From NCBI GenBank assembly GCA_963811485.1, contig CAWERO010000004.1:55232-119231 (forward strand): a stretch of 64,000 nucleotides of DNA, read 5' to 3'. A model generated the notes under the pieces. That model saw nothing but the letters and a program-made list of their open reading frames with translations. It made no database searches and was not told the origin of the DNA. The stretch's first letter is position 1. Each line of letters opens with the position of its first letter. The stretch is from an uncultured Gammaproteobacteria bacterium. GTDB taxonomy: Bacteria > Pseudomonadota > Gammaproteobacteria > Steroidobacterales > Steroidobacteraceae. Shown piece after piece: positions 43,020-58,338 of the stretch. The translations under genes were made by a program, and so were the position numbers.

Positions 43020-43646
43020 CTATTGGGCGCCGAATCCTGGCAGCTGGCCGCGCCCCTGGCGCAGGATGACCGGCGGCGAGACGGCCAGGTCCACGACTGT
43101 CGTGGGCTCCAGGCCGCAGTTGCCCGAATCGAGCACGGCGTCGATCTGGTGCTCGAGCCGCTTACGGATCTCATGTCCTTCGGTGAGCGGCACGGCTTCT
43201 CCGGGCAGCAGCAGCGTGGAACTCATGATCGGTTCGCCCAGTTCCGCGAGCAGCAGGCGTGGTACCACATGGTCGGGAATGCGGATACCAATGCTGCGCC
43301 GCTGCGGATGCTGCAGGCGGCGCGGTGTTTCGCGGGTGGCCGGCAGCAGAAAGGTGAACGGCCCGGGCGTCGCGGCCTTGAGGAGGCGGAATTGCCAGGT
43401 GTCAACTCGGGCGTAGCGGGCGATCTCGGCCAGATCGCGGCAGACCAGCGTGAAGTGATGGTGCTTGTCGGCCTGGCGGAGCCGCCTGATGCGCTCGAGG
43501 GCCTCCCGGTCACCGATATGGCAGCCCAGGGCATAGCAACTGTCGGTCGGGTAGGCGATCAGGCCCCCGTCGCGCAGGATCTGCACCGCCTGGCGGATGA
43601 GTCGAAGCTGCGGATTCTGCGGATGCAATTCGAAATACTGGCTCAA
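43020..43646 (-). CDS. YrdC/YciO/Sua5-domain protein (threonylcarbamoyl-AMP synthase family)
   Basis: From a TTG start (MSQYFELHPQNPQ): GGLIAYPTDSCYALGC, FTLVCRD, GPFTFLLPAT, IGIRIPDH, STLLLPGE. About 208 aa. Confidence 0.8.
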   Translation of the reverse strand: MSQYFELHPQNPQLRLIRQAVQILRDGGLIAYPTDSCYALGCHIGDREALERIRRLRQADKHHHFTLVCRDLAEIARYARVDTWQFRLLKAATPGPFTFLLPATRETPRRLQHPQRRSIGIRIPDHVVPRLLLAELGEPIMSSTLLLPGEAVPLTEGHEIRKRLEHQIDAVLDSGNCGLEPTTVVDLAVSPPVILRQGRGQLPGFGAQ

Positions 43647-43718
43647 GCAGCTAATATACGCGGCCCATAAGGGCCCCGTGCCCGAAACCGGGAACGCACC
43701 CCGAGGAACCGTGACCGG

Positions 43719-44280
43719 ATGCAAGCCGCGCTCAATTTTCTGCCGCTGGCCGCTTTCATGCTGGCCTACCGGCTCCGCGGCATCTACATGGCGACGGCCG
43801 TGCTGATGGGGGCCATGCTGCTGCTGGCCCTGGTCGATTACCTGCGCTTCGCGCCGCGTCTCGCCCATGCACGCGTTGAGCACCGTGCTGGTGCTGGTGT
43901 TCGGCGGCGCGACGCTGGTATTTCACGATCCGCGGTTTCTGAAGATCAAGCCGACTTTGCTGCTGTGGCTCATGGCGCTTGCCTTTCTCGGCAGCCAGTG
44001 GATTGGCAGGACCCCGCTCGTGCAGCGGCTGCTGGAACCGGCGCTCACGCCCGGAGCCACTGTGCCGCGGGAACAATGGTTGCGCGCCAACTGGGTCTGG
44101 GTTGGCGCCTACGTGTTGCTCGGCGCGCTGAACCTGTACGTGGCGCAGCACGCGAGCGAGCAGGTCTGGGTCTACTTCAAGGGCTTCGGCCTGACGATCG
44201 CACTGATGGCCCTGGCCATGGGCCAGGCCATCTGGCTGCATCGGCGCCAGGCCGGCATCAGCGCGGAATCCGGGCCATGA
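43719..44280 (+). pseudogene. yciB: intracellular septation protein A (YciB/IspZ); 1 frame break about 43850
   Basis: MQAALNFLPLAAFMLAYRLRGIYMATAVLM.. then, in another frame, MHALSTVLVLVFGGATLVFHDPRFLKIKPTLLLWL... Confidence 0.8.
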
Positions 44281-44564
44281 CGCAGGGGTCGGCGCCTGGA
44301 TCCCGGGTTGAACGAATTCGCGCCGTGGTGCAGGATGCGCTCCATCCCGTTCTGCTTGAGATTCGCGATGACAGTGCGGCGCACGTCGGCCATGCCGGTG
44401 GCGGCGGCAAGGGGCACTTTAGACTCGTGATCGTGTCTGAGCTCTTTTCCGGGAAATCGCTCCTGCAGCGACATCGCCTGGTGCATGAGGCGCTGGCGTC
44501 GCTGCTGGAGAGCGATATCCACGCATTGGTACTGAGCACCAAGGCGCCTGATGAATTACATTAA
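44277..44564 (+). CDS. BolA-family protein
   Basis: 95 aa with an ATGA overlap with yciB. HVGHAGGGGKGHFRLVIVSELFSGKSLLQRHRLVHEAL carries the BolA F.G..RHR.V signature. Confidence 0.8.
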   Translation: MTQGSAPGSRVERIRAVVQDALHPVLLEIRDDSAAHVGHAGGGGKGHFRLVIVSELFSGKSLLQRHRLVHEALASLLESDIHALVLSTKAPDELH

Positions 44565-44581
44565 GTTTATATTGTAACCCT

Positions 44582-45412
44582 ATGAGAGTTAAAATGAATA
44601 TTTTTAGAATTATGGCGATAACAGCGCTCGCCCTGTTGGCGGGCTGCGCACCGAAGAGCGATCAGACCAACGGCAATGCGGCCGCAGCAAAGCCGGTCGC
44701 CACCGTCAATGGTCGCGCGATCGCCAGCGCGCAGTTCGATTTCTTCGTCAAGACCGTGACGGGCAAGCCGGCAGCCGACCTGACGGTCGAACAGCGCGGG
44801 CAGGTGCTGGACACCCTGGTGCGGGCCGAAGTGGTCGCGCAGCAGGCTGAAAAGGACGGGCTGGATAAGCAGGGAGACGCGCCCGCCTCGCTGGCCATGG
44901 CGCGCCTGCAGGTTCTGGAGCAGGCGGCCATGGCGAGCTACCTGAAGGACCGCAAGGCGACGGATGCGGAACTCAAGTCCGAATACGACACCCAGGTCGC
45001 GGCGATGCCCAAGACCCAGTACAAGGCCCGGCACATTTTGGTGAAGACCAGGGACGAGGCCGAACAGGTCATTGCTGCGCTCAAGAAAGGGGCGAAGTTC
45101 GAGAAACTGGCCGCTGAGCAATCGCTGGATGGCTCCAAGACCAATGGTGGCGATCTGGGCTGGTTCAGCCCGACCAATATGGTGCGCCCGTTCGCCGAGG
45201 CCGTAGCCGGTCTCAAGAAGGGCGAGACCACGAGCGCGCCCGTGCAGACTGAATTTGGCTGGCATGTCATCCGGCTCGATGACATGCGCGAGACCGCGCC
45301 GCCGGCCTTTGACTCCGTCAAGGACCGTCTGGTGCAGATCGTGGAGGGAAAGAAATTCAAGACCTACGGTGACGGCCTGATGAGTGCCGCCAAGGTGGAG
45401 AAGACGCCCTGA
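44582..45412 (+). CDS. parvulin-type peptidyl-prolyl cis-trans isomerase lipoprotein
   Basis: Lipobox LLAGC. PpiC domain YKARHILVKTRDEAEQVIAALKKGAKFEKLAAEQSLDGSKTNGGDLGWF..GWHVIRL. The start may instead be ATG 44594. Confidence 0.85.
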   Translation: MRVKMNIFRIMAITALALLAGCAPKSDQTNGNAAAAKPVATVNGRAIASAQFDFFVKTVTGKPAADLTVEQRGQVLDTLVRAEVVAQQAEKDGLDKQGDAPASLAMARLQVLEQAAMASYLKDRKATDAELKSEYDTQVAAMPKTQYKARHILVKTRDEAEQVIAALKKGAKFEKLAAEQSLDGSKTNGGDLGWFSPTNMVRPFAEAVAGLKKGETTSAPVQTEFGWHVIRLDDMRETAPPAFDSVKDRLVQIVEGKKFKTYGDGLMSAAKVEKTP

Positions 45413-45443: not shown

Positions 45444-47177
45444 CTAAGGCAGGCTGGCGTCCAGGAATTGGCGGAACGCGGCCACGGCCGGCGGCGCGGC
45501 AGCGTGTGGCACCGCGCGATACCCTGGCGCGGCCAGGCCGCGCTGCGTCGATGCGGCCAGATCCAGATCCAGGCGCAGCGCCTCGCGGCCAATGCGCCCG
45601 GCCAGGAGCCGCGCTGCGGTCGCGTCCTGCGCGCCGTCCGCAAACCAATAGTCGAAGCATTGCCAGCGGCTGCGGCCCGGCGCGACGGGTATGACCTGGA
45701 TGGCGCTGATGCCATCGGGCCGCCACTCAAGCAGGATGTTGGGCCACAGAAAAATGCGCCGCCATCCTGCCCCGTCCCGTGCCTGGGCAGCCGGCCCGAG
45801 GCGCAACGTGGTCCCGGCGCTGCCGGCGGCAGGCTGTGCGCGCCAGCGCAGCTGACGCCGGTCGGGATCGGATTCGAGAGCTGGTGCGTCGAAGCTGTGC
45901 ACCCCGCCGTGTACCGGGTGGGCGCTCAGGCGGTGCAGCAGTAGCTGCTCGACCGCGACTTTCCAGTCGGCGGCGACTTCAAGCTCGGAAAATGTGCCGC
46001 TGTCGTTCACGCCGGGCCCGGGCTGCGCGGGGTGCGGCGCGCTCTCGGACAGGTCCGGCGGCAGCGGCACATCGCCCTCGGCTGTGGCGCACACAAACAC
46101 GAGCCCGGCCGAAGTGGCCTGGTGCACGGCCGCCAGGTTGCCGCTGGCGGCCGGATCGGCGGCCCTGCCGTCCAATGCAAAACAAAGCTGATGCAGGGGA
46201 CAGGATATGCTTTGCCCCAGCTGGCTGCGCCGCGCCAGCACCAATGCGTGCGGCTGCGGCGGGCAGCTGTTGTCCAACGCCCGCAGGCGCGCGGCGTCGC
46301 GCAGCACCAGCACCCGGCCTGTAGCCAGTTCTACGGTCAGGCTATCGCCCGGCGAGCGCAGTTCCGCCTCGTGCCCGGCGAGCTGCCATGCAGCGCCGAA
46401 CCAGCGCGCCCGCTCCTGCTCGAAGCGCTGTTCCACCGCCAAGCCGTCCCAACCACGTGCGGGCAGGCGGGACGGAAAATGACCAGGAAATACCGAGGCG
46501 AGGTAGGCCAGGGCGCGCGCGCGCGCGGCGCTGCGGTCGATGCGCTCCTCGGTCTGGAAGGCAAAGCCCTGCCAGATCATCTCCAGCACGCCAATCAGGC
46601 CCAGCGAGATGGCGTCCGGATCCAGGTGCGCCTGCCCACTCTTCTCGATCATGCGCCCGATCAGCTCGAGCACCAGATCGGCGAAGCGGTCGTCCTTCTG
46701 GCCGCAGATGTCCTGGTATTCCTGGCGGGCGGTGGCCTCGCCCCAGAATGCATACCAGACCGAGACCTTGCGCGTGCTGGCCACGGCCGCGTCGAGGTAC
46801 AGATCGACCAGCGTTTGCAGCGCCTGCACCGGCGCATGACGCAGGCTGCCGACCGGCTCGAGCACCAGTTGTTCGAACTCGGTCGACAGGAAGCGGAGCG
46901 AGGCGACCAGCATGGCGCCTTTGGACTTGAAGTAGAATCGCACGATGCCGGGCGACAGCTTCGCGATGGCGACCACCTTCGCCACCGTAGTTTGCGACGG
47001 TCCGTAGATATGCAGCGCGGAAATGCAGGCGTCGATCAGTCGCTGGCGTTGCCGGCTGGCGGACAGGCGCCGCTGCGGCGTCGCGCCCGGCCGGCGCCGC
47101 GGCCGGGAAGCCCGCGCGCTCAAGTAGTGCTTCCGGGGCGGCCCGCCGCCACGACGGCGGGCGAAACCAGCTTGCAT
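45444..47177 (-). CDS. TetR-family (BetI-like) regulator fused to a Rieske-oxygenase alpha-subunit-like domain with degenerate metal sites
   Basis: One uninterrupted 577-aa ORF. The HTH is RLIDACISALHIYGPSQTTVAKVVAIAKLSPGIVRFYFKSKGAML, followed by a TetR C-domain. From about residue 250 the sequence aligns to the window's own Rieske oxygenase (53291..54506). Confidence 0.7.
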   Translation of the reverse strand: MQAGFARRRGGGPPRKHYLSARASRPRRRPGATPQRRLSASRQRQRLIDACISALHIYGPSQTTVAKVVAIAKLSPGIVRFYFKSKGAMLVASLRFLSTEFEQLVLEPVGSLRHAPVQALQTLVDLYLDAAVASTRKVSVWYAFWGEATARQEYQDICGQKDDRFADLVLELIGRMIEKSGQAHLDPDAISLGLIGVLEMIWQGFAFQTEERIDRSAARARALAYLASVFPGHFPSRLPARGWDGLAVEQRFEQERARWFGAAWQLAGHEAELRSPGDSLTVELATGRVLVLRDAARLRALDNSCPPQPHALVLARRSQLGQSISCPLHQLCFALDGRAADPAASGNLAAVHQATSAGLVFVCATAEGDVPLPPDLSESAPHPAQPGPGVNDSGTFSELEVAADWKVAVEQLLLHRLSAHPVHGGVHSFDAPALESDPDRRQLRWRAQPAAGSAGTTLRLGPAAQARDGAGWRRIFLWPNILLEWRPDGISAIQVIPVAPGRSRWQCFDYWFADGAQDATAARLLAGRIGREALRLDLDLAASTQRGLAAPGYRAVPHAAAPPAVAAFRQFLDASLP

Positions 47178-47197
47178 TTGGCATAGTCACGCATCAG

Positions 47198-48116
47198 ATG
47201 AAAGGCAATTTCCTGGTGAAATACCGGATCGGCAGGCACCGGCGCTGGCTGATCATCGCTCCGCCGTTCCTGTTCCTGCTGGTCTTTTTCCTGATCCCGT
47301 TCGGTTTTGCGCTGACGATCAGCTTTGCCCAGACCGCGATCCGCGTGCCGCCGTTCACCGATATCGTGTCGATGGACGCGCATCACCACCTGCATCTGGT
47401 GCTGAAGCTGGACAACTACCGCTATCTGCTCACGGACAAAGTCTATGCCCTCTCCTACTTATATTCCCTGAAAACCGCGTTCTTTTCCACGCTCATCTGC
47501 CTTCTGATTGGCTATCCGATGGCCTATGCCATCTCGCGCACCTCGCGCAGCACGCAGAGCATCCTGTTGCTGATCATCATCCTGCCGTTCTGGACTTCCT
47601 TCCTGCTGCGGGTCTACGCGCTCGAGGGGATCATTCGCGAAAACGGCCTGCTCAACCAGGCGCTGCTGTGGCTGGGTCTGGTCCACCGAGCCGCTGCAGC
47701 TCATGCACACGACCAGCGCGGTCTACCTCGGCATCATCTATTCCTACCTGCCGTTCATGGTGCTGCCGCTGTTCGCGACGCTGGAAAAGCTCGACCGCAC
47801 GCTGCTGGAGGCCTCGGCCGACCTCGGCAGCCCGCCCTGGCGTGCCTTTCTCGACGTTACGCTGCCGCTGTCGATGCCCGGGGTGATCGCCGGCTCGATG
47901 CTGGTGTTCATTCCGGCGATCGGCGAGTTCGTCATCCCGACGCTGCTGGGCGGCGCCGACAATCTGATGATCGGGCGCGTGCTGTGGGACGAGTTCTTCG
48001 GCAACCGTGACTGGCCGGTCGCCTCCGCGGTCGCGGTCGCATTCCTGGTGCTGCTGGTCGGACCGATCGCCATCTACCAGCACTATCACAGCAAGGAGCT
48101 CGAGGCGCACGCGTGA
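47198..48116 (+). pseudogene. polyamine-type ABC transporter permease (PotB/PotH-like); 1 frame break about 47685
   Basis: RRWLIIAPPFLFLLVFFLIPF.. then AVYLGIIYSYLPFMVLPLFATLEKLDRTLLEASADLGS (EAA loop) in another frame. Confidence 0.85.
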
Positions 48117-48946
48117 ACGAGCGGCCGCCGACCATGCTGATGACGCGTGCTCGCGCATCGGCGTGGCGCTGCTCTACATCCCGATGCTGGTGATGATCGG
48201 CTATTCCTTCAACGCCTCGCCGCTGGTCGGCATCTGGGGCGGCTTCTCCACGCACTGGTACCGCGAACTGGTGCACAACGATCAGCTCATTTCCGCTGCC
48301 TGGCTGTCGCTGCGCATCGGCTTTGTCGCCGCCACCTCGGCCATGGTGCTGGGCACGCTGGCGGCGATCGCGCTGGTGCGCTTCAGGCGCTTTCGCGGCC
48401 GATTGACGCTCACCGCCATGGTCAACGCGCCGCTGGTGATGCCCGAGATCATCACCGGCATCACGCAGCTGCTGCTGCTGATCTCCATGCTGCACCTGTT
48501 CGGCTGGCCGCACCGCGGCTTCCTGACCATCGTGCTGGCGCACGTCGACCTTCTGCACCGCCTACGTCACGGTCACGGTGCAATCGCGCCTCGGCACGGC
48601 CGATCGTTCGCTGGAGGAAGCGGCCATGGACCTGGGTTCCGGGCCGGTGCGCGCCTTCATCGACACCACGCTGCCGATCATCGCCCCGGCGCTGGCCAGC
48701 GGCTGGCTGCTGAGCTTCACGCTCTCGCTCGATGATCTGGTGATCTCGAGCTTCGTCTCGGGGCCGGGCGCCAGCACGCTGCCGATGGTGATCTTCTCGA
48801 AAGTGAAGCTGGGCGTGAGCCCGGACATCAACGCGCTCGCCACGCTGATCATCGCCACGGTCGGCGCCGGCGTGCTCATTGCCGGCGTGCTGATGCGGCG
48901 CGCCGACCAGCAGCGGCTGCGCGACCTGCAGCTTGCCGCGCAATAG
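48113..48946 (+). pseudogene. polyamine-type ABC transporter permease (PotC/PotI-like); at least 2 frame breaks
   Basis: IGVALLYIPMLVMIGYSFNASPLVGIWGGFSTHWY.. then SLEEAAMDLGSGPVRAFIDTTLPIIAP..VISSFVSGPGASTLPMVIFS. The GTG start overlaps the upstream stop (GTGA). The exact start is uncertain. Confidence 0.8.
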
Positions 48947-48966
48947 CGGCATGCGCCTGGCGATCG

Positions 48967-50062
48967 TTACTCGCCGGTCTTGATGCGCGTCCAGATTCGC
49001 GTGCGGATCCGCTCCAGGGTGATGCTCGTTTCCACGTTGGGGTAGAGGCGCGCTTCGATCTCGGGCGTCGGGATACAGGATGGGGTCGTTCAAAATGTCC
49101 GGCCGGACGTAGGCATTGGCCGCGAGGTTGGCGTTGCCGTAGTAGATTTCATTGGTGATGCCGGCAATGACTTTCGGGTCCATGAGGTAATTGAGGAATG
49201 CGTAGGCCGCCTCCGGATGGGGCGCGCCAACGGGAATCAGGAACGAGGACAAGGTCAGATTGGCACCCTCGACGGGCACCGTGAACGCCAGGTGCACTGG
49301 CGCCCCGGCAGCGCGCGCGCGCGCCATCACCGTTTCGTAGTCGGCTGACCACGACATTGCGATGCATACCTCCTGGTTGGCGAGCGCGTTCATGTACTCG
49401 ACCGAATCGAAGGTGCGGACGTAGGGGCGCACCTTGAGCAACAGCCGCTCGGCCGCCTCATAGTCCTCGCGGCGCGTGCTGTTCGGGTCCAGATGCAGGT
49501 ACTTCAAGGCGAGCTGCAGCACATCCTGCGGCGAGTCGAGGAAAGTCACGCCGCAGTCGGCAAAGCGCGCAATGATCTCCGGCTTGAAGATCATGTCGAG
49601 GCTCCCGACCGGTGCGTCGTGCATGCGTGCGCGGATCTGCTCCACGTTGTAGGCGAAACCGTTGATCGCCTGCATGTACGGCACGCCGTAGCGATTGCCC
49701 GGGTCGCTGTCCTCCAGGTTGGCCAGGAAGTGCGGATCCAGGTTCTTCCAGTTGGGCAGCTTTGACTTGTCGAGCGGGATGTAAACACCAGCCCTGATCT
49801 GGCGGCTCGAGAAGTTCGAAGACACGCTAACCACGTCGTAGCCGGATTCGCCGGCCAGCAGCCGTGCCTCGGCGGTTTCCTCCGCGTCGTAGGTGTCGTA
49901 CACCACCTTGATGCCGGTGAGTTTCTCGAAGCGCTTGATGGTGCCGGTACCGATGAAGTCGGACCAGTTGTAGATGAACAGGCGCTTGTCCGCCGCCACG
50001 GCCTCGCCGCCGGTGGCGGCCAGCAGCAGTGCAAGTATGCCGGCGCGGTACTTCCGCATCAT
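48967..50062 (-). pseudogene. periplasmic polyamine/putrescine-binding protein (PotF/PotD-like); 1 frame break about 49075
   Basis: Signal peptide MMRKYRAGILALLLAATGGEAVAA. LFIYNWSDFIG, YDVVSVSSNF, YGVPYMQ. The last 33 aa (TPEIEARLYPNVETSITLERIRTRIWTRIKTGE-TAA) lie in another frame. Confidence 0.85.
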
Positions 50063-50068
50063 GCAGTC

Positions 50069-50076
50069 ATTATAAT
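50069..50076. promoter_or_regulatory. palindromic ATTATAAT element (TATAAT on both strands) between the divergent potF-like and amidohydrolase genes
   Basis: attataat at 50069-50076. On the minus strand TATAAT ends 6 nt before the potF-like ATG (50062). On the plus strand it lies 46 nt upstream of the amidohydrolase start. No convincing -35 element. Confidence 0.3.
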
Positions 50077-50121
50077 GGGTGGCGGGCGCACGCATGCGCT
50101 TTGGATTCAGGGGAGACAGTC

Positions 50122-52140
50122 TTGAGAAAATCGGACGGACGGGACTGGACCGCGGTCAAAGCCCTGCTGGCGTTAGCCGTCGCGTCGCCAGCGGGCGCCG
50201 CGCCCGCCGATCTGGTGCTCTCGCATGCCCGCATCTATACCGCCGCCGGGCCTGCGTTGGCCGAGGCCCTGGCTGCAAGCCACGGCCAGATCGTCTACGT
50301 GGGCGATGCGGCCGGGGTCAAGAAATATGTGGGGGCGCGCACGCGCCGGGTCGATGCCGGCGGGCGCCTGGTATTGCCGGGGCTCGTCGACTCGCACATC
50401 CATCCGATCGACCTGGTAAGCGGCGACGAATGTGACCTGCTGAGCGGACCCCGGTCGCTGCGCCAGATATCGGCGTTTGTCCGTGGCTGCATCGCGCATT
50501 TCCGTCCGTCAGCCGGCGGTTGGCTCCGCGTCCAGGGCTGGAGCAACACGTACGGCAACACACCCGATGCACAGTTCCCTACCCTGCGCGTGGCGCTGGA
50601 CAAGGCTGCGCCCGGGAATCCAATCTACATGATGGGCGACGATGGCCATCACGCCGTCTTCAACAGTGCCGCCATGGCGCTGGCCGTCAACGCCCAGGGC
50701 CGCAGGGTCGGGCTCAGCCGGGCCACCCTGGCCAGTGATTTCGCGCGTTATCGCTTGCTGATCAGCGTCGACGCGCAGGGCGAGCCCGATGGCCAGATGA
50801 ACGAGGAAGCGCAGTACCTCGTCAACCGCGATTACATGAACTACAACGAGCTGCAGATCGCGCTCGAGCATCCTGAGCGGATGCCGCGCGCGCTCAACGC
50901 GGCGGGCATCACGGCCGTGCTCGACGCGGCGGCCGCGCCCGAAGCCAATCCCGTCTACGAAAAACTGCTGGCCTCCGGAACACTGACCGCGCACGTCACG
51001 CTGGCTCAGTATTTCAACCCGGACTACAACCTTGACGCCGCCGGCCACATCGACTACCCAGGCATGGTGGCGCGTGCGCTGGCGATGCGTGCCCGTTACG
51101 CGTCCAATCCGCTGCTGCGCGCTGATTTCGTCAAGCTGTACGCCGATGGCGTGGTCGAGGGCAATCCCTTTGCCACGCCACCGACGCTGGGCAACGCTGC
51201 GATGTTGCAGCCCTACCTGCAACCGATGTTCAGCATCGACGCTGCGGGGCATCCGAGCGTGACTGGCTACGTGGATACGGATTCACCGTTGTGCCGCGAA
51301 GTGCGCGCGCATCCTGAACAGTATCAGGACGTGGCCGCATTCAGCACGGCCCACGGCTTCTATCCCGGCCAATGTGACCTGTCGATGGGTCAACTCAAGG
51401 ACGATCGCGAGGTGATCCTCGAGATGGCGCGCCGCATGCACCTGGCCGGGTTCAACCTGCACATCCACGTCATCGGCGATCGCGCCGCCCGCACTGCGCT
51501 CGATGCGATCGAAGCCGCGCGTGCCGCGGACGGCAACGGCAGTACGCACGACAGCTTCGCGCACCTGCAGTTCGCGCAGCCGGAAGACGTCGAGCGGCTG
51601 GGCCGCGACCACCTGTACGTGGCCTTCACCTTCTGCTGGGCCACCTCGAGCATCGACTATGACATGACGGTCGTGCCCTTCCTGCAGCACATGACCGGCA
51701 ACAGCGCCGAGAGCCGCATGGTGCCTGGCAGTTATTACTATGAAAACAGCTACCCGGTACGCGCCGTGCGGGATGCAGGCGGCATCGTAGTAGGCGGGTC
51801 CGATGCGCCGGTAGGCACACGCGACCCGCAACCCTTCGTCAACATCGCCGTGGCCTTGCTGCGGCACATGAGCGGAGACTTGACGCTCAACCCACAGCAG
51901 GCTCTGACGGTGCGCCAGGCGCTCGACGCTTACACGATCGACGGAGCGAGGTTCCTGGGTCGGGAGCGGGAATTTGGCTCACTCGAAGCGGGCAAGTCGG
52001 CCGACTTCATCATCGTGGATCGCGACCTGCTGGCGCTCGCCGATTCCGGCCGGGCCGAGCAGATCGCCGGTACGCGCGTACTCGAGACCTGGTTCCGCGG
52101 CCGACAGGTCTATCGCGCCAGACAGCGCGGCGGGCGCTGA
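50122..52140 (+). CDS. secreted metal-dependent amidohydrolase (amidohydrolase-3 / COG1574-like)
   Basis: Intact. TTG start 6-7 nt after GGGGAG, and a signal peptide (ALLALAVASPAGAA). PGLVDSHIHP (HxH), HIHVIGDRA, GGSDAPV. Confidence 0.8.
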   Translation: MRKSDGRDWTAVKALLALAVASPAGAAPADLVLSHARIYTAAGPALAEALAASHGQIVYVGDAAGVKKYVGARTRRVDAGGRLVLPGLVDSHIHPIDLVSGDECDLLSGPRSLRQISAFVRGCIAHFRPSAGGWLRVQGWSNTYGNTPDAQFPTLRVALDKAAPGNPIYMMGDDGHHAVFNSAAMALAVNAQGRRVGLSRATLASDFARYRLLISVDAQGEPDGQMNEEAQYLVNRDYMNYNELQIALEHPERMPRALNAAGITAVLDAAAAPEANPVYEKLLASGTLTAHVTLAQYFNPDYNLDAAGHIDYPGMVARALAMRARYASNPLLRADFVKLYADGVVEGNPFATPPTLGNAAMLQPYLQPMFSIDAAGHPSVTGYVDTDSPLCREVRAHPEQYQDVAAFSTAHGFYPGQCDLSMGQLKDDREVILEMARRMHLAGFNLHIHVIGDRAARTALDAIEAARAADGNGSTHDSFAHLQFAQPEDVERLGRDHLYVAFTFCWATSSIDYDMTVVPFLQHMTGNSAESRMVPGSYYYENSYPVRAVRDAGGIVVGGSDAPVGTRDPQPFVNIAVALLRHMSGDLTLNPQQALTVRQALDAYTIDGARFLGREREFGSLEAGKSADFIIVDRDLLALADSGRAEQIAGTRVLETWFRGRQVYRARQRGGR

Positions 52141-53294
52141 TGGGCAAGGTGCGCTCGCGGCCAGGCCGCGCCGGATGGGGTGCGATCGCCTGCCTGCTCG
52201 CTGCCTCGGCCGCGACGGCGGGGCCGCACTCGCGGGCAGCCGTCGCGGCGCTGGTACAGGAGGAAATGGCTGCCCAGTCCATTCCAGGCCTGGCGATCGC
52301 GATTATCGAGCACGGTCACGTGCGCATGGCCCGCGGGTTCGGTTACGCCAATGTCGAGCATGCGGTGCCAGTGACGGCCGCGACCGTGTTTCAATCCGGC
52401 TCGGTCGGCAAGCAATTCACTGCGGCAGCAGTGATGCTGCTGGTGGAAGAGGGCAAACTCTCGCTCGATGATCCGATCGGCCACTACCTGCCGGAGGCGC
52501 CACCCTCCTGGCAGGCCATTCGCATCCGGCACCTGCTGACGCACACTTCCGGCATTGCCGACTACACGACCGAGGCCTTCGATGTGCGCCGCGCCTACAC
52601 CGAGGCCGAGCTGGTGCGCACGATCTGTGCGCTGCCGCTGGAGTTTCCTGCCGGCGAGCGCTACAGCTACAGCAATTCAGGGTATCTGCTGCTCGGGGCG
52701 ATCATGGATCGGGTCAGCGGCCGCCACTACAGCGAGTTGCTGCGCGAGCGCGTGTTCCAGCCGCTGGGCATGCATAGCGCACGCCTGATCGATGAAGCGG
52801 CGATCGTGATGCACCGGGCCGCCGGCTACCGCCTGCTCGACGGCAAGCTGGCCAACCAGGCCTGGGTGGCCCCGGAGCAGAACACCACCGCCGATGGTTC
52901 GCTGTACCTGTCGCTGGCGGACATGATCGCGTGGGACCGCGGCGTGCGCGCCGGGCGGGTGCTGCGTCCGGAGTCCTGGCGGCAGATATTCACCCCGGTG
53001 CGACTGAACAGCGGCAACCCCTACCCTTATGGCTTCGGCTGGGAACTGCCCACCGTGAACGGGCAACAGGTCGAATCGCACGATGGCGGCTGGCAGGGAT
53101 TCTCGGTCCACATATCGCGCTACCTGGGGAGCGATATCAGCATTATCGTTCTGACCAACCTGGCCGAAGGGGATCCGGCGCGCATTGCGCGGCGGGTGGC
53201 GGCCACGTTGCGTGATGAACTGCGAGCGCCAGCGAGAGCCGCCAGCGCTGATTCCAGGCCGGATTCGTCGGTTGCGCTCGCGCCGGTCGACTAG
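52140..53294 (+). CDS. secreted serine hydrolase, beta-lactamase/transpeptidase-like family
   Basis: Intact 384 aa with a signal peptide and the S-x-x-K motif (FQSGSVGKQFTA); also YSNSGYLLLG. The start overlaps the upstream stop (TGATG). Confidence 0.8.
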   Translation: MGKVRSRPGRAGWGAIACLLAASAATAGPHSRAAVAALVQEEMAAQSIPGLAIAIIEHGHVRMARGFGYANVEHAVPVTAATVFQSGSVGKQFTAAAVMLLVEEGKLSLDDPIGHYLPEAPPSWQAIRIRHLLTHTSGIADYTTEAFDVRRAYTEAELVRTICALPLEFPAGERYSYSNSGYLLLGAIMDRVSGRHYSELLRERVFQPLGMHSARLIDEAAIVMHRAAGYRLLDGKLANQAWVAPEQNTTADGSLYLSLADMIAWDRGVRAGRVLRPESWRQIFTPVRLNSGNPYPYGFGWELPTVNGQQVESHDGGWQGFSVHISRYLGSDISIIVLTNLAEGDPARIARRVAATLRDELRAPARAASADSRPDSSVALAPVD

Positions 53295-54506
53295 GCCAGC
53301 GCCGCGGACTCGGCCAGCGCGGCATCGGCCGCCGTTTCTGCCAGATACCATTCGACGAAACGCCGGGCGTAATCCTCCTGCAGTGAATACGGTCCCGGCT
53401 CGTAGTAGCGCGAATTCACGCCCTGCTGATTACGCTCGATGATCAGCTTGTCCTCGACGCTGGTCACCTGCCAGAGCCAGCTGAGGCGCTCGGCGTCATA
53501 GTCGCGCCCCGCCACCGCGTCGGCGTGCACCAGCCAGATGACCTCCATTTCGGTGCGATCTACGGCGCGGGGAATGAAGCGATAGATCACGCCGTGGTCT
53601 GCATAGGCCAGGAAGTCGCTGATCGGACCGATGTCGAAGTAGGTCGAACTGCCGTCGTGTTGCGAAAAGTCGCCCATCAGCGGCGCGACCGGCTGGCCGT
53701 CGGGCGATGCCGGTGAGGTGCCCGGCGAGCAGCGCGCTGCGCAGCACGGACACTGATTCCTGCCCCGGCCGCGCCCGCAGGCCATAGCCATCGACGTCTG
53801 TCGATCTGGATGCCGAGCGCGCGCTGCGCTCGCTGCGCGGCCTGCTCGAGTTCTGCGTGCTCTGCGCCAGCCGGCCGCGCATAGACGTGGCGGCGCGCGA
53901 ATTCCGGGTGCGCGGGCTGGCAGTGATAGCACTCCATGTAATTTTCGAGCGCCAGCTTCCAGTTGGCGTGAATCTCGAAGCTGGCCCGATGCGCCACCTT
54001 TGCCTTGGCCCAGCCATGGGTGCCGGCGGCGCTGGCGAGCGCGCGCTCCGCATCGTCGAGCGCGGGCGGCGCGGCGGCAAAGCTGACGAAGATGAGCCCC
54101 TGCGAGCACCCGCACGTGCAACGGCCTGAGGCCTGCAGTTTCGCGCCGAAACGACGCCGGCATTTCGCGCGCCGCGCGCAGGCGGCCATCGAGCCCGTAG
54201 GACCAGGCGTGGTACGGGCAGGTGAAGCCGCCGCCCTGGGCGGTGCCGGAACGCGTCACGCACACGCGTGAGCCCCGGTGACGGCAGACGTTCAGCAGCG
54301 CGTGCACGTTGCCGTCGGCGGCGCGACACACGATCACGGATTCGGCGGCCGAGATCCACCAGGAAGAAGTCGCCCGTGTCCGGCAGGCTGCTGACGTGGC
54401 CGGCGCAGAACCAGTGCCGCAGCAGCATGCGCTCCATGTCCTGCTCGAAGATCGCCGGATCGGTGTAGAACTCGCGCGGCAGCGAGTAGCCTGCGCGCGG
54501 CGCCAA
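53291..54506 (-). pseudogene. Rieske [2Fe-2S] non-haem-iron oxygenase alpha subunit (GbcA/Stc2-type N-demethylase-like); at least 4 frame breaks
   Basis: YSLPREFYTDPAIFEQDMERMLLRHWFCAGH; Rieske motif CRHRGSRV..CPYHAWSYGLDGRL; catalytic motif NWKLALENYMECYHCQPAHPEF; C-terminus YEPGPYSLQEDYARRFVEWY. The fragments sit in three frames. Confidence 0.8.
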
Positions 54507-54540
54507 GCGCGGTTGCTGCCAGCACGACCCGTCGCCTCCC

Positions 54541-57171
<2,631 letters not shown>

Positions 57172-57189
57172 GATCGACTCCCCCTGCAA

Positions 57190-58338
57190 CTAGGATTGCA
57201 GCACGATCGCTGCGTTGGCGTTCCAGCTCACGAAGACTTCGTCGCTCCAGTCGATCGACCACTCCGAAGTGCGCTGTTCGTTCTTGCCCAGCACCGTCAG
57301 CATCTTGCCCGTAGGCGTGCGGATCCGGTAGGTCGAGCGGTTGCCCAGGTAGCCGAGCTCGGCGACGACGCCCTTCAGGCGGTTGAGTCGCTCGCCGGTC
57401 GGCGGCTCCTTGCTGAGGCGGATCTTCTCCGGCCGCAGCGCCACCCAGACCTGCTGGCCGACGGCTGACCTGCGCCGCGATCGTCGACCAGCAGCTCGGC
57501 GCCCGCCTCCGGGCTGTGCACGCGGATCTGACCCGGCTCGACCCCGGTCACGGTGCCTTCGAAGAAATTCGTGGTGCCGATGAAATCGGCGATGAAGCGG
57601 CTCTGCGGGAATTCGTAGATCTCGGCCGGCGTGCCCACCTGGATGACCTTGCCGTGGTCCATCACCGCGATGCGGGTGGCGAGCGCCATGGCCTCGTCCT
57701 GGTCGTGCGTCACGAAGATGAAGGTGATGCCGACCTTGTACTGGATGTTCATCAGCTCGAACTGCGTCTGCTCGCGCAGCTTCTTGTCGAGCGCGCTCAG
57801 CGGCTCGTCGAGCAGCAGCACCTTGGGGCGACGGATCAGCGCGCGCGCCAGCGCCACGCGCTGGCGCTGCCCGCCGGAGAGCTGGTGCGGCTTGCGCTGC
57901 GCCAGCGCGCCCAGCTGCACCATGTCGAGCGCCGCCTGGATGCGCTGCGCTGCGCACGGCCGGCTCCAGCGGCATGCGCCGCAGGCCGTAGCCGACGTTG
58001 CTCTCGACCGTCATGTGCGGGAACAGCGCGTAGGACTGGAACATCATGTTGACGGGGCGCTGGTGCGGCGGCACCTCGTTCATCACGGCGCCATCGATGG
58101 TGATCTGGCCGGCGGTCGGCTGCGTGAAGCCCGCCAGCATGCGCAGCAGCGTGGTCTTGCCGCAGCCCGACGCTCCCACCAGCGCGAACATCTCGCCCTT
58201 GAAGATGCTCAGGCTCACGTTGTCGACGGCCGTCACACCAGGATAGGTCTTGCAGACGCCGTCGATGACGACCTGCGGCTGCGCGTCGGGATCGAGCCAC
58301 GGGCGATCGGCAAGCTGCTTGGGATCGGGCTGGCCCAA
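57190..58338 (-). pseudogene. potA: polyamine-type ABC transporter ATP-binding protein (PotA/PotG-like); 2 frame breaks
   Basis: Walker A GASGCGKTTLLRMLAG, Q-loop MFQSYALFPH, signature [15 protein letters not shown], Walker [12 protein letters not shown], and a C-terminal TOBE-like part. TTG start directly after the upstream stop. Confidence 0.88.

Follow-up and report, generated by a model that had tools for sequence, protein, structure and literature searches.

A BetI-type TetR regulator fused to a Rieske-oxygenase-like module beside an amine gene island in Steroidobacteraceae

The stretch of DNA analysed here, called the window throughout, comprises 64,000 nucleotides from an uncultured gammaproteobacterium of the family Steroidobacteraceae (assembly GCA_963811485.1, contig CAWERO010000004.1, positions 55,232 to 119,231), and on its minus strand, at 45444..47177, it carries an uninterrupted open reading frame (ORF) of 577 codons plus stop that, in the ORF listing, encodes a fusion of a TetR-type regulator with a Rieske-oxygenase-like domain. 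We consider it rather probable that this protein is a one-component TetR repressor of BetI type, controlling the adjacent amine island, and that its oxygenase-derived C-terminal 330 residues act as a non-catalytic sensor. On the best reading of their sequence, these residues descend from the alpha subunit of a group-V (quaternary-ammonium or amine) Rieske oxygenase. An original prediction, made from the letters of the DNA alone, had called the oxygenase domain catalytically dead, and we likewise favour a non-catalytic role because the first Rieske His and the bridging carboxylate are lost and because the ratio of nonsynonymous to synonymous substitution rates (dN/dS) of the module is 2–4 times that of the genuine oxygenase encoded nearby.

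Results

A TetR-Rieske fusion that recurs across genomes

The joining of a TetR regulator to a Rieske-oxygenase-like domain in one frame, as first proposed, is borne out by the uninterrupted 577 codons and by four Pfam domains in order, and the peptides cited in that proposal, including DWKVAVEQLLLHRLSAHPVH, are found in the protein. The translation start is likely to lie further downstream than the ATG at 47177, which falls within unconserved sequence. In the family alignment the N-termini of homologues align to residue 19, where they read MS.RRSRPRR; this residue (L19) is encoded by a TTG at 47121-47123 that is preceded 7 nt upstream by GGAAG and whose position is kept in loci L002, L004, L006 (the closest genome, at 85% nucleotide identity) and L013. 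Because homologues begin at residue 19 and the TTG recurs in these four loci, it is probably the true start, giving a coding sequence at 45444..47123 and a protein of 559 aa.

From this start the polypeptide (minus strand throughout) would begin with an Arg-rich arm ahead of the helix-turn-helix (HTH), predicted to be disordered from its low predicted local distance difference test (pLDDT) scores (residues 19-42, 47052..47123). It continues with a TetR-type HTH whose columns are nearly invariant across the family (residues 50-92, 46902..47030; PF00440, 18.6 bits), a BetI-type TetR C-terminal regulatory core (residues 116-230, 46488..46832), a linker that varies in length in the alignment (residues 231-263, 46389..46487; pLDDT 73-78), a Rieske-fold domain (residues 264-343, 46149..46388; PF00355, 34.7 bits) and a homologue of the ring-hydroxylating alpha-subunit catalytic domain (residues 398-573, 45459..45986; PF00848, 38.8 bits). 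PF00440 matches are precomputed for many relatives of the fusion protein. The core is assigned to the BetI type by TetR_C_6 (PF13977), which scores 48 bits with the cut-off at 27, and the core contains a WYAFWGE motif that is invariant across the family. In NCBIfam the BetI models are the best for residues 42-166, at scores below their equivalog thresholds (68.8 vs 201.3 bits for TIGR03384; 62.2 vs 118 bits for NF001978), and the best models for residues ~250-365 are anthranilate dioxygenase and GbcA, the GbcA equivalog model scoring 31.2 bits against a cut-off of 670. Pfam and Foldseek agree on Rieske and Ring_hydroxyl_A domains with an alpha-subunit fold, and it is the collinear series TetR_N/TetR_C_6, Rieske and Ring_hydroxyl_A, on one polypeptide and in an amine-catabolic locus, that places the protein in a fusion superfamily.

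The original prediction had called for a database search for the same architecture. Among 5.8 billion clustered proteins, a search recovered over 120 clusters, 474-590 aa long and 46-67% identical, with a query coverage of 85-98% and the same precomputed Pfam architecture; when each GTDB species was represented by one genome, 357 genomes encoded a relative. The best 80 of these 357 are nearly all Steroidobacteraceae, Steroidobacterales or unclassified Gammaproteobacteria metagenome-assembled genomes (MAGs), and they come from many separate assembly projects. The fusion is conserved and is not a frameshift artefact: an origin by frameshift or misassembly was rejected on the conservation of the architecture across genomes, and the junction is credible without resequencing because the same architecture recurs in 357 genomes from independent assemblies. 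Full-text literature searches found no relevant paper on a TetR-Rieske or BetI-Rieske fusion, in line with the earlier remark that no characterised precedent was known; automated annotation has detected both domains, and the architecture appears uncharacterised in the literature. In one hit, P0191 (1342 aa), a TetR-Rieske segment at the N-terminus runs into ABC-exporter-like sequence that contains long stretches of low complexity; this is probably a chimeric or frameshifted gene call, not a real architecture.

An altered Rieske motif within an invariant Cys2His2 set

Ligands and conservation were counted in an alignment of 120 sequences, which fall into two clades of 60 clusters each, the window's clade and a sister clade. 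The Rieske-fold domain of the window protein has the non-canonical metal motif C305-P-P-Q-P-H310 ... C326-P-L-H329 (46191..46265, minus strand), in which the canonical His position 307 is Pro; as originally described, the first C-x-H has become C-P-P with loss of its His ligand, and the second motif, C326-x-x-H329, is intact. In the family alignment C305, H310, C326 and H329 are each present in 120/120 sequences, and P309 stands at the canonical Gly position in 118/120. Position 307, which corresponds to CntA His88, is His in 38/120 and otherwise mostly Q, E or N, Pro being found in the window protein alone. Since the four residues are invariant, the fusion protein probably still has a metal or Fe-S site, and the replacement of the canonical Gly by P309 implies a remodelled Rieske loop. 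In a degenerate sub-branch (P0124, P0138, P0139, P0141, P0144, P0148 and P0154) C-x-x-D replaces C-x-x-H while both Cys and the +5 His are kept, which suggests a metal site that is altered yet maintained.

A profile alignment to CntA (E = 1e-31) equates C305, C326 and H329 with Cys86, Cys106 and His109, and places H310 three positions past His88, that is, at His91 by position. The listed Rieske ligands of CntA are Cys86, His88, Cys106 and His109, and His91 is not among them. A His at this +5 position is also present in at least 90% of the fusions with canonical ligands described below (CRHRAH) and in CntA itself (CPHRGH); as far as these alignments go it is ancestral and need not be a ligand. 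The idea of H310 as a newly gained ligand was weakened by the same observation.

The mononuclear-iron site in the two clades

The two His residues of the catalytic-iron site had been reported not to line up without gaps. This is true of an ungapped hidden Markov model (HMM) alignment to CntA, in which L417 and V422 stand opposite His208 and His213, but not of a MAFFT alignment with the standalone neighbour oxygenases, where a 2-residue gap aligns H415-R-L-S-A-H420-P with H-x4-H-P. The segment H415 to H420 (45918..45935, minus strand) therefore equals the canonical H-x4-H only after a 2-residue deletion, and this deletion removes the E-x-Y segment before the first His, including the bridging carboxylate. 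Profile alignment and clade counts identify D537 (45567..45569, minus strand) as the counterpart of CntA Asp323, the carboxylate iron ligand. Mutants of the CntA bridging carboxylate, E205, are all inactive (PMC7948474).

Within the window's clade H415 is kept in 59/60 clusters, H420 in 48/60 and D537 in 58/60; all three are lost in the sister clade. Position 412, the site of the cation-pi Tyr203 of CntA, is Leu in 60/60 of the window's clade and Trp in 54/60 of the sister clade, and position 414 is Leu or Ala in the former and Glu or Asp in 54/60 of the latter. A bridging carboxylate is missing from the window's clade in either register, the position being occupied by L412 (60/60) in the gapped one and by L/A414 in the ungapped one. 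As judged from these alignments, neither clade holds a complete catalytic apparatus and both keep the Cys2His2 set. A gapped alignment with every ligand intact would have overturned the original prediction; H415, H420 and D537 do match the triad in it, but the Rieske His and the bridging carboxylate are lost all the same. The metal ligands had been said to look degenerate, and the loss of these two features fits that description, whereas the Cys2His2 set, at 120/120, does not: on sequence grounds the word is right for catalysis and wrong for metal binding as such.

Fold of the oxygenase-like module and selection acting on it

An AlphaFold2 model built with the 120-sequence alignment had a mean pLDDT of 86.5 and a predicted template modelling score (pTM) of 0.67. 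pLDDT reached 95 or more around the Rieske loops. The first ~30 residues were disordered, with values below 50 for residues 9-26 and means of 49 for residues 21-30 and 62 for residues 31-40. When this model was compared with the PDB by Foldseek, Stc2 and CntA ranked first (probability 1.00, E ~1e-15 to 1e-16), with target template modelling (TM) scores of 0.57-0.67 and an identity to CntA chains of 20-22%; CntA was also the best PDB sequence-profile match of the catalytic-domain homologue (E = 1e-31).

The two halves of the fusion evolve at different rates. Mean pairwise identity over the same genomes is 79% for the TetR module, 43.5% for the oxygenase-like module, 60% for the genuine oxygenase and 83% for potB, and dN/dS (Nei-Gojobori, close pairs) is 0.17-0.38 in the oxygenase-like module, 0.06-0.11 in its genuine oxygenase neighbour, 0.02-0.16 in the TetR module and 0.02-0.06 in potB. 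The oxygenase-like module is thus under purifying yet relaxed selection and is less constrained than a working oxygenase. No other gene of the locus has diverged from L006 nearly as much as the regulator, which is 61% identical overall (TetR 86%, oxygenase-like 55%); most flanking genes are 79-99% identical. Since other genome pairs show the same pattern, the fast evolution of the module is, on this sequence evidence, a property of the family.

An amine island back-to-back with the regulator

The regulator had been described as divergent from polyamine-type permease genes, and a potB/potC-like pair does lie back-to-back with it. Synteny was counted in 80 fetched loci, with ORFs called by third-position GC content (GC3) and neighbours clustered. 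Where the upstream flank was recovered, almost every fusion gene diverges from potB/potC-like permease genes, beyond which lies a convergent PotF-like gene. A potB-like gene is present in 69 of the 80 loci, a potC-like gene in 66, a PotF-like gene in 59 and a standalone Rieske oxygenase in most. In the window these are a potB-like ATP-binding cassette (ABC) permease divergent from the regulator (47198..48116, plus strand; frame broken near 47687), a potC-like ABC permease (48011..48946, plus strand; frame broken near 48144-48156 and at 48548) and a PotF-like periplasmic amine-binding protein (48970..50128, minus strand; frame broken near 49073). Beyond them lie an intact Amidohydro_3 family hydrolase (50029..52140, plus strand), an intact beta-lactamase-fold serine hydrolase (52140..53294, plus strand), a GbcA-like ('type B') Rieske oxygenase with canonical CRHRG...CPYH and YHCQPAHP motifs (53345..54506, minus strand; three frames), a TonB-dependent receptor with several frame breaks (54544..57250, minus strand) and a PotA-like ABC ATPase with two (57193..58338, minus strand); the gene order of the window's-clade island after PotF was confirmed on the window's own sequence. 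The original prediction had placed a genuine oxygenase at 53291..54506. The enzyme is genuine and belongs to the same island, but it is spread over three frames that had been stitched together. Scanning the window for Rfam families and tRNAs gave no match.

Sister-clade loci continue after the fusion gene with a PuuC-like aldehyde dehydrogenase, another kind of Rieske oxygenase ('type A'), class-III aminotransferases, two or three proteins resembling flavin amine oxidases and then PotA; upstream they have genes for an S58 peptidase, a permease for amino acids and an HD protein. Type A oxygenases, which are closest to Stc2 and CntA, adjoin the fusion gene in this clade only. An HMM of the fused module gives them 140-175 bits and gives the window-type GbcA-like oxygenases 84-104 bits. 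The window's GbcA-like oxygenase was considered as the parent of the fused domain and rejected, the type A oxygenases and the canonical fusions being closer.

On its downstream side (43020-45412) the regulator adjoins housekeeping-type genes that are seemingly unrelated to the amine island. The ORF translations alone point to a gene like YrdC/Sua5 at 43020-43883 (minus strand), one like that for septation protein A at 43867-44280 and a BolA-like ORF whose end is at 44564; a PpiC-type peptidyl-prolyl isomerase (44582-45412) is confirmed by Pfam. In the window's clade, the amine island stops at these genes.

Frame breaks affect several genes of the island but not the fusion gene. Against L006 the window has 20 non-triplet insertions and 2 deletions in conserved, non-homopolymer contexts, and 16 of the 20 insertions fall within 47687-57030, inside or next to potB, potC, potF and the genes of the oxygenase and the TonB receptor. 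The breaks lie at 47687, 48144-48156, 48548, 49073, 53708, 54102, 54348, 54509, 54623, 54763-54802, 55346-55362, 55589, 56460 and 57030, and in potA at ~57468 and ~57950, so that 2-5 reading frames are needed to cover each of potB, potC, potF, potA and the genes of the GbcA-like oxygenase and the TonB receptor. The proteins of the broken genes are otherwise 88-99% identical to those of L006, and the frames of the GbcA-like oxygenase are separated by at least three +1 insertions relative to its L006 orthologue. The fusion ORF and the amidohydrolase and beta-lactamase-fold genes are free of breaks. The pattern reflects either a one-sided assembly error mode or recent pseudogenisation; if the latter is real, the regulator of this strain has lost most of its targets, and the window-specific P307 might belong to the same decay.

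A conserved element in the divergent control region

Given the TTG start, the divergent intergenic region spans 47124-47197, and its sole conserved part is a non-coding 19-mer, TGGCATAGTCACGCATCAG, at 47179..47197 (plus strand), directly 5' of the potB-like ATG. Its consensus is TGGCATAGTC(A/G)CGCATCAG. Besides the window, 14 of 15 window-clade loci examined carry it in the same place with 0-1 mismatch, and the remaining intergenic DNA has diverged in the loci that share it. The 19-mer includes a TGn-CATAGT stretch that is extended -10-like, with no Shine-Dalgarno sequence between the 19-mer and the potB ATG; were this stretch to act as an extended -10, it would imply a nearly leaderless potB mRNA. 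We regard the 19-mer as a candidate operator or leaderless-type promoter element. No second copy was found elsewhere in the window, and a consensus promoter and terminator scan of 46900-47400 found nothing. At locus L037 of the sister clade the start codons of the fusion and potB-like genes overlap as CATG.

A wider fusion family with canonical ligands

An exhaustive HMMER scan of 1.84 billion cluster representatives gave 113 clusters at E <= 1e-30, and beyond the window's family it revealed a more distant grade of proteins, of 590-630 aa here and 590-650 aa across the wider family, 28-37% identical over their full length, that align over both modules and have the four Pfam domains in the same order. 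Their motifs are canonical: NVCRHRAH...CPYHGW, DNYLE(G/D)YH....GHP and ED......Q.G. A search seeded with P0181 returned 779 matches at E <= 1e-40, and the four-domain architecture was present in 120/120 among the matches listed. Across 50 canonical fusions C-x-H, C-x-x-H, E-x-Y-H-x4-H and E-D are all invariant; P0168 is intermediate, with a canonical Rieske site and a lost iron site. Examples include P0172, P0178, P0181 (a Kiloniellales MAG), P0195, P0202, P0215 and P0290 (cultured Labrys wisconsinensis), with loci L081-L086. Hosts comprise Kiloniellales, Labrys wisconsinensis, other Alpha- and Gammaproteobacteria and Steroidobacteraceae, and existing annotation goes no further than 'SRPBCC family protein' or 'ring-hydroxylating dioxygenase large subunit/AcrR'.

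The four canonical loci examined are amine-catabolic, with genes for PotF-like, Gln-synt_C, DAO, class-III aminotransferase, amine oxidase, GCV_T, arginase-family and aldehyde dehydrogenase proteins, and a separate oxygenase is missing in three of the four. From their gene content such loci would serve amine, methylamine or guanidino-type catabolism, and their fusions are candidate enzyme-repressors. In a neighbour-joining tree, which is rough and has long branches, the degenerate fused modules group together and the canonical fused modules group with the type A standalone oxygenases. The window's family looks like a degenerate offshoot of this larger canonical-ligand fusion family, and there is a hint of a path from an enzyme-repressor, through a duplication giving a standalone oxygenase, to a dedicated sensor.

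Discussion

In the mechanism that we propose, the TetR module would bind an operator in the control region shared by potB and the regulator, for which the 19-mer at 47179-47197 is the candidate in the window's clade, and would thereby repress both the importer and the catabolic genes nearby. The module derived from the oxygenase would retain a substrate pocket and a metal site and bind the amine of the pathway; this binding would alter the TetR core, and the repressor would leave the DNA. Ligand sensing by the oxygenase-like module is here inferred from its ancestry and setting.

Several observations weigh against this picture. The score of TetR_N (PF00440) in the window protein is under the 24-bit Pfam cut-off. 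No palindrome was found in the window's control region, the 19-mer being non-palindromic, and no family-wide palindromic operator emerged from 65 upstream regions. The 19-mer is absent from the sister clade (L016, L018-L080), where the fusion and potB-like start codons are only 0-17 bp apart, so that each promoter must sit inside the coding sequence of the other gene. The highly conserved BetI-type core, with its aromatic WYAFWGE region, could itself be the effector site, which would leave another role for the oxygenase-like module. Finally, the conservation of H415, H420 and D537 in the window's clade would be compatible with an iron site and some chemistry.

Other explanations have to be set against a non-catalytic sensor. 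The most trivial, that adjacent TetR and oxygenase genes were merged by a sequencing or assembly frameshift, or that the module is a decaying remnant, draws some force from the 20 non-triplet insertions in neighbouring genes, which betray an assembly or a locus that is error-prone or decaying; yet there are no such insertions within 45444-47177, dN/dS lies well below 1 and the architecture is uninterrupted in 357 species genomes and more than 120 clusters, and we give this explanation almost no credence. A bifunctional enzyme-repressor of the PutA or BirA type, in which an active oxygenase would control DNA binding through catalysis or turnover, also seems improbable. The H415-x4-H420 pair and D537 kept in the window's clade under the gapped alignment speak for it, as do the fully canonical relatives, which lack a separate oxygenase in three of the four loci examined. 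Against it stand the canonical Rieske His, which is Pro in the window and variable in the family, the loss of both His and the Asp in the sister clade, the raised dN/dS, the genuine oxygenase encoded nearby and the absence of any reductase gene seen in the fetched flanks, together with the lack of a carboxylate 3 residues before H415, at a position essential in CntA (PMC7948474).

The strongest competitor, doubtful as it is, is a redox, iron or oxygen sensor, in which C305, H310, C326 and H329 would hold a Rieske-type [2Fe-2S] cluster through unusual C-x4-H ligation and the redox or assembly state of the cluster, and not an amine ligand, would gate DNA binding; expression of an amine-oxidation pathway that depends on iron and oxygen would then follow the supply of cofactor or oxygen. 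The four residues are invariant although the domain averages 43.5% identity, P309 replaces the canonical Gly almost throughout, the C-x-x-D of some sub-branches still offers a potential ligand and the loops are predicted with high pLDDT, but the +5 His, being ancestral, need not be a ligand and the site could equally be structural Zn or Fe-S. A scaffold or partner-binding role is slightly less probable even than an enzyme-repressor. The module would then trimerise or dock onto the genuine oxygenase or a reductase, setting the oligomeric state of the TetR dimer or reporting the state of the enzyme, and would not bind a small molecule. CntA-type oxygenases do form head-to-tail alpha3 trimers (PMC7948474), and conservation in the module is greatest in fold-level motifs (DWK, EQ, PN, S.Q.G) and not in obvious pocket residues; however, W412 of the sister clade, at the cation-pi Tyr203 position, points to a retained amine pocket.

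A non-catalytic amine sensor on a repressor can be compared with several known systems. BetI is the choline-responsive TetR-family repressor of the bet genes, and the fusion protein resembles it in the HTH and TetR_C_6 core, which match BetI models, and in the link to quaternary-amine or amine metabolism; the AWLAFWA motif of E. coli BetI is probably the counterpart of the family's VWYAFWGE. The fusion protein is not an orthologue, its score being far below the equivalog cut-off, it has an extra oxygenase-like module of 330 residues, and its gene is surrounded by pot-like transporter and amine-catabolic genes and not by betAB. The group-V oxygenases CntA (carnitine), Stc2 (stachydrine) and GbcA (glycine betaine) share its two-domain fold, include the best sequence and structure matches of the module, and have in common with it the NxC, CxxH, DWK, PN and S/E.Q.G motifs and the +5 His. 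They differ in that the fusion has an attached DNA-binding module, a replaced first Rieske His, no bridging Glu, and an iron His pair that sits 2 residues off or, in the sister clade, has disappeared; the canonical-ligand fusions, in contrast, are longer and of broader taxonomy, and show no variation in the bridging Glu or in any Rieske or 2-His-1-carboxylate ligand. MocR/GabR regulators combine a GntR HTH with an aminotransferase-fold domain and are linked to amine (gamma-aminobutyric acid, GABA) catabolism. Conceptually they are alike, in that the effector domain is homologous to the type of enzyme under control and has impaired catalysis, but the DNA-binding family, the enzyme fold and the pyridoxal phosphate (PLP) cofactor are different, which makes this an analogy, not a homology. 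PutA, a catalytically active trigger enzyme with a ribbon-helix-helix (RHH) domain and flavin adenine dinucleotide (FAD), likewise places a redox-cofactor enzyme and a repressor on one polypeptide and is a possible model for the canonical-grade fusions; the window's protein differs from it in being without key catalytic features.

TetR regulators, the largest repressor family, are normally two-domain proteins of ~200 residues that sense their ligand in their own core, and an oxygenase-derived third module would add a new type of sensor to them. The series from canonical through half-degenerate to degenerate ligands provides a natural system in which to study the change from enzyme to sensor, and the family raises the possibility of a Rieske-type metal centre in transcription control. 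More speculatively, and with no more than slender likelihood, it may record a shift from a bifunctional Rieske oxygenase-repressor to a pseudoenzyme sensor that controls its DNA binding through the old substrate pocket and a [2Fe-2S] or other metal centre with an unprecedented ligand set, C-x4-H ... C-x-x-H/D. Were this the case, the family would be the first example both of a Rieske-cluster transcription factor and of a TetR regulator bearing Fe-S. Steroidobacterales are abundant in soil and sediment and are known almost only from MAGs, and the fusion gene marks the control point of an uncharacterised island for amine uptake and catabolism that is widespread among them.

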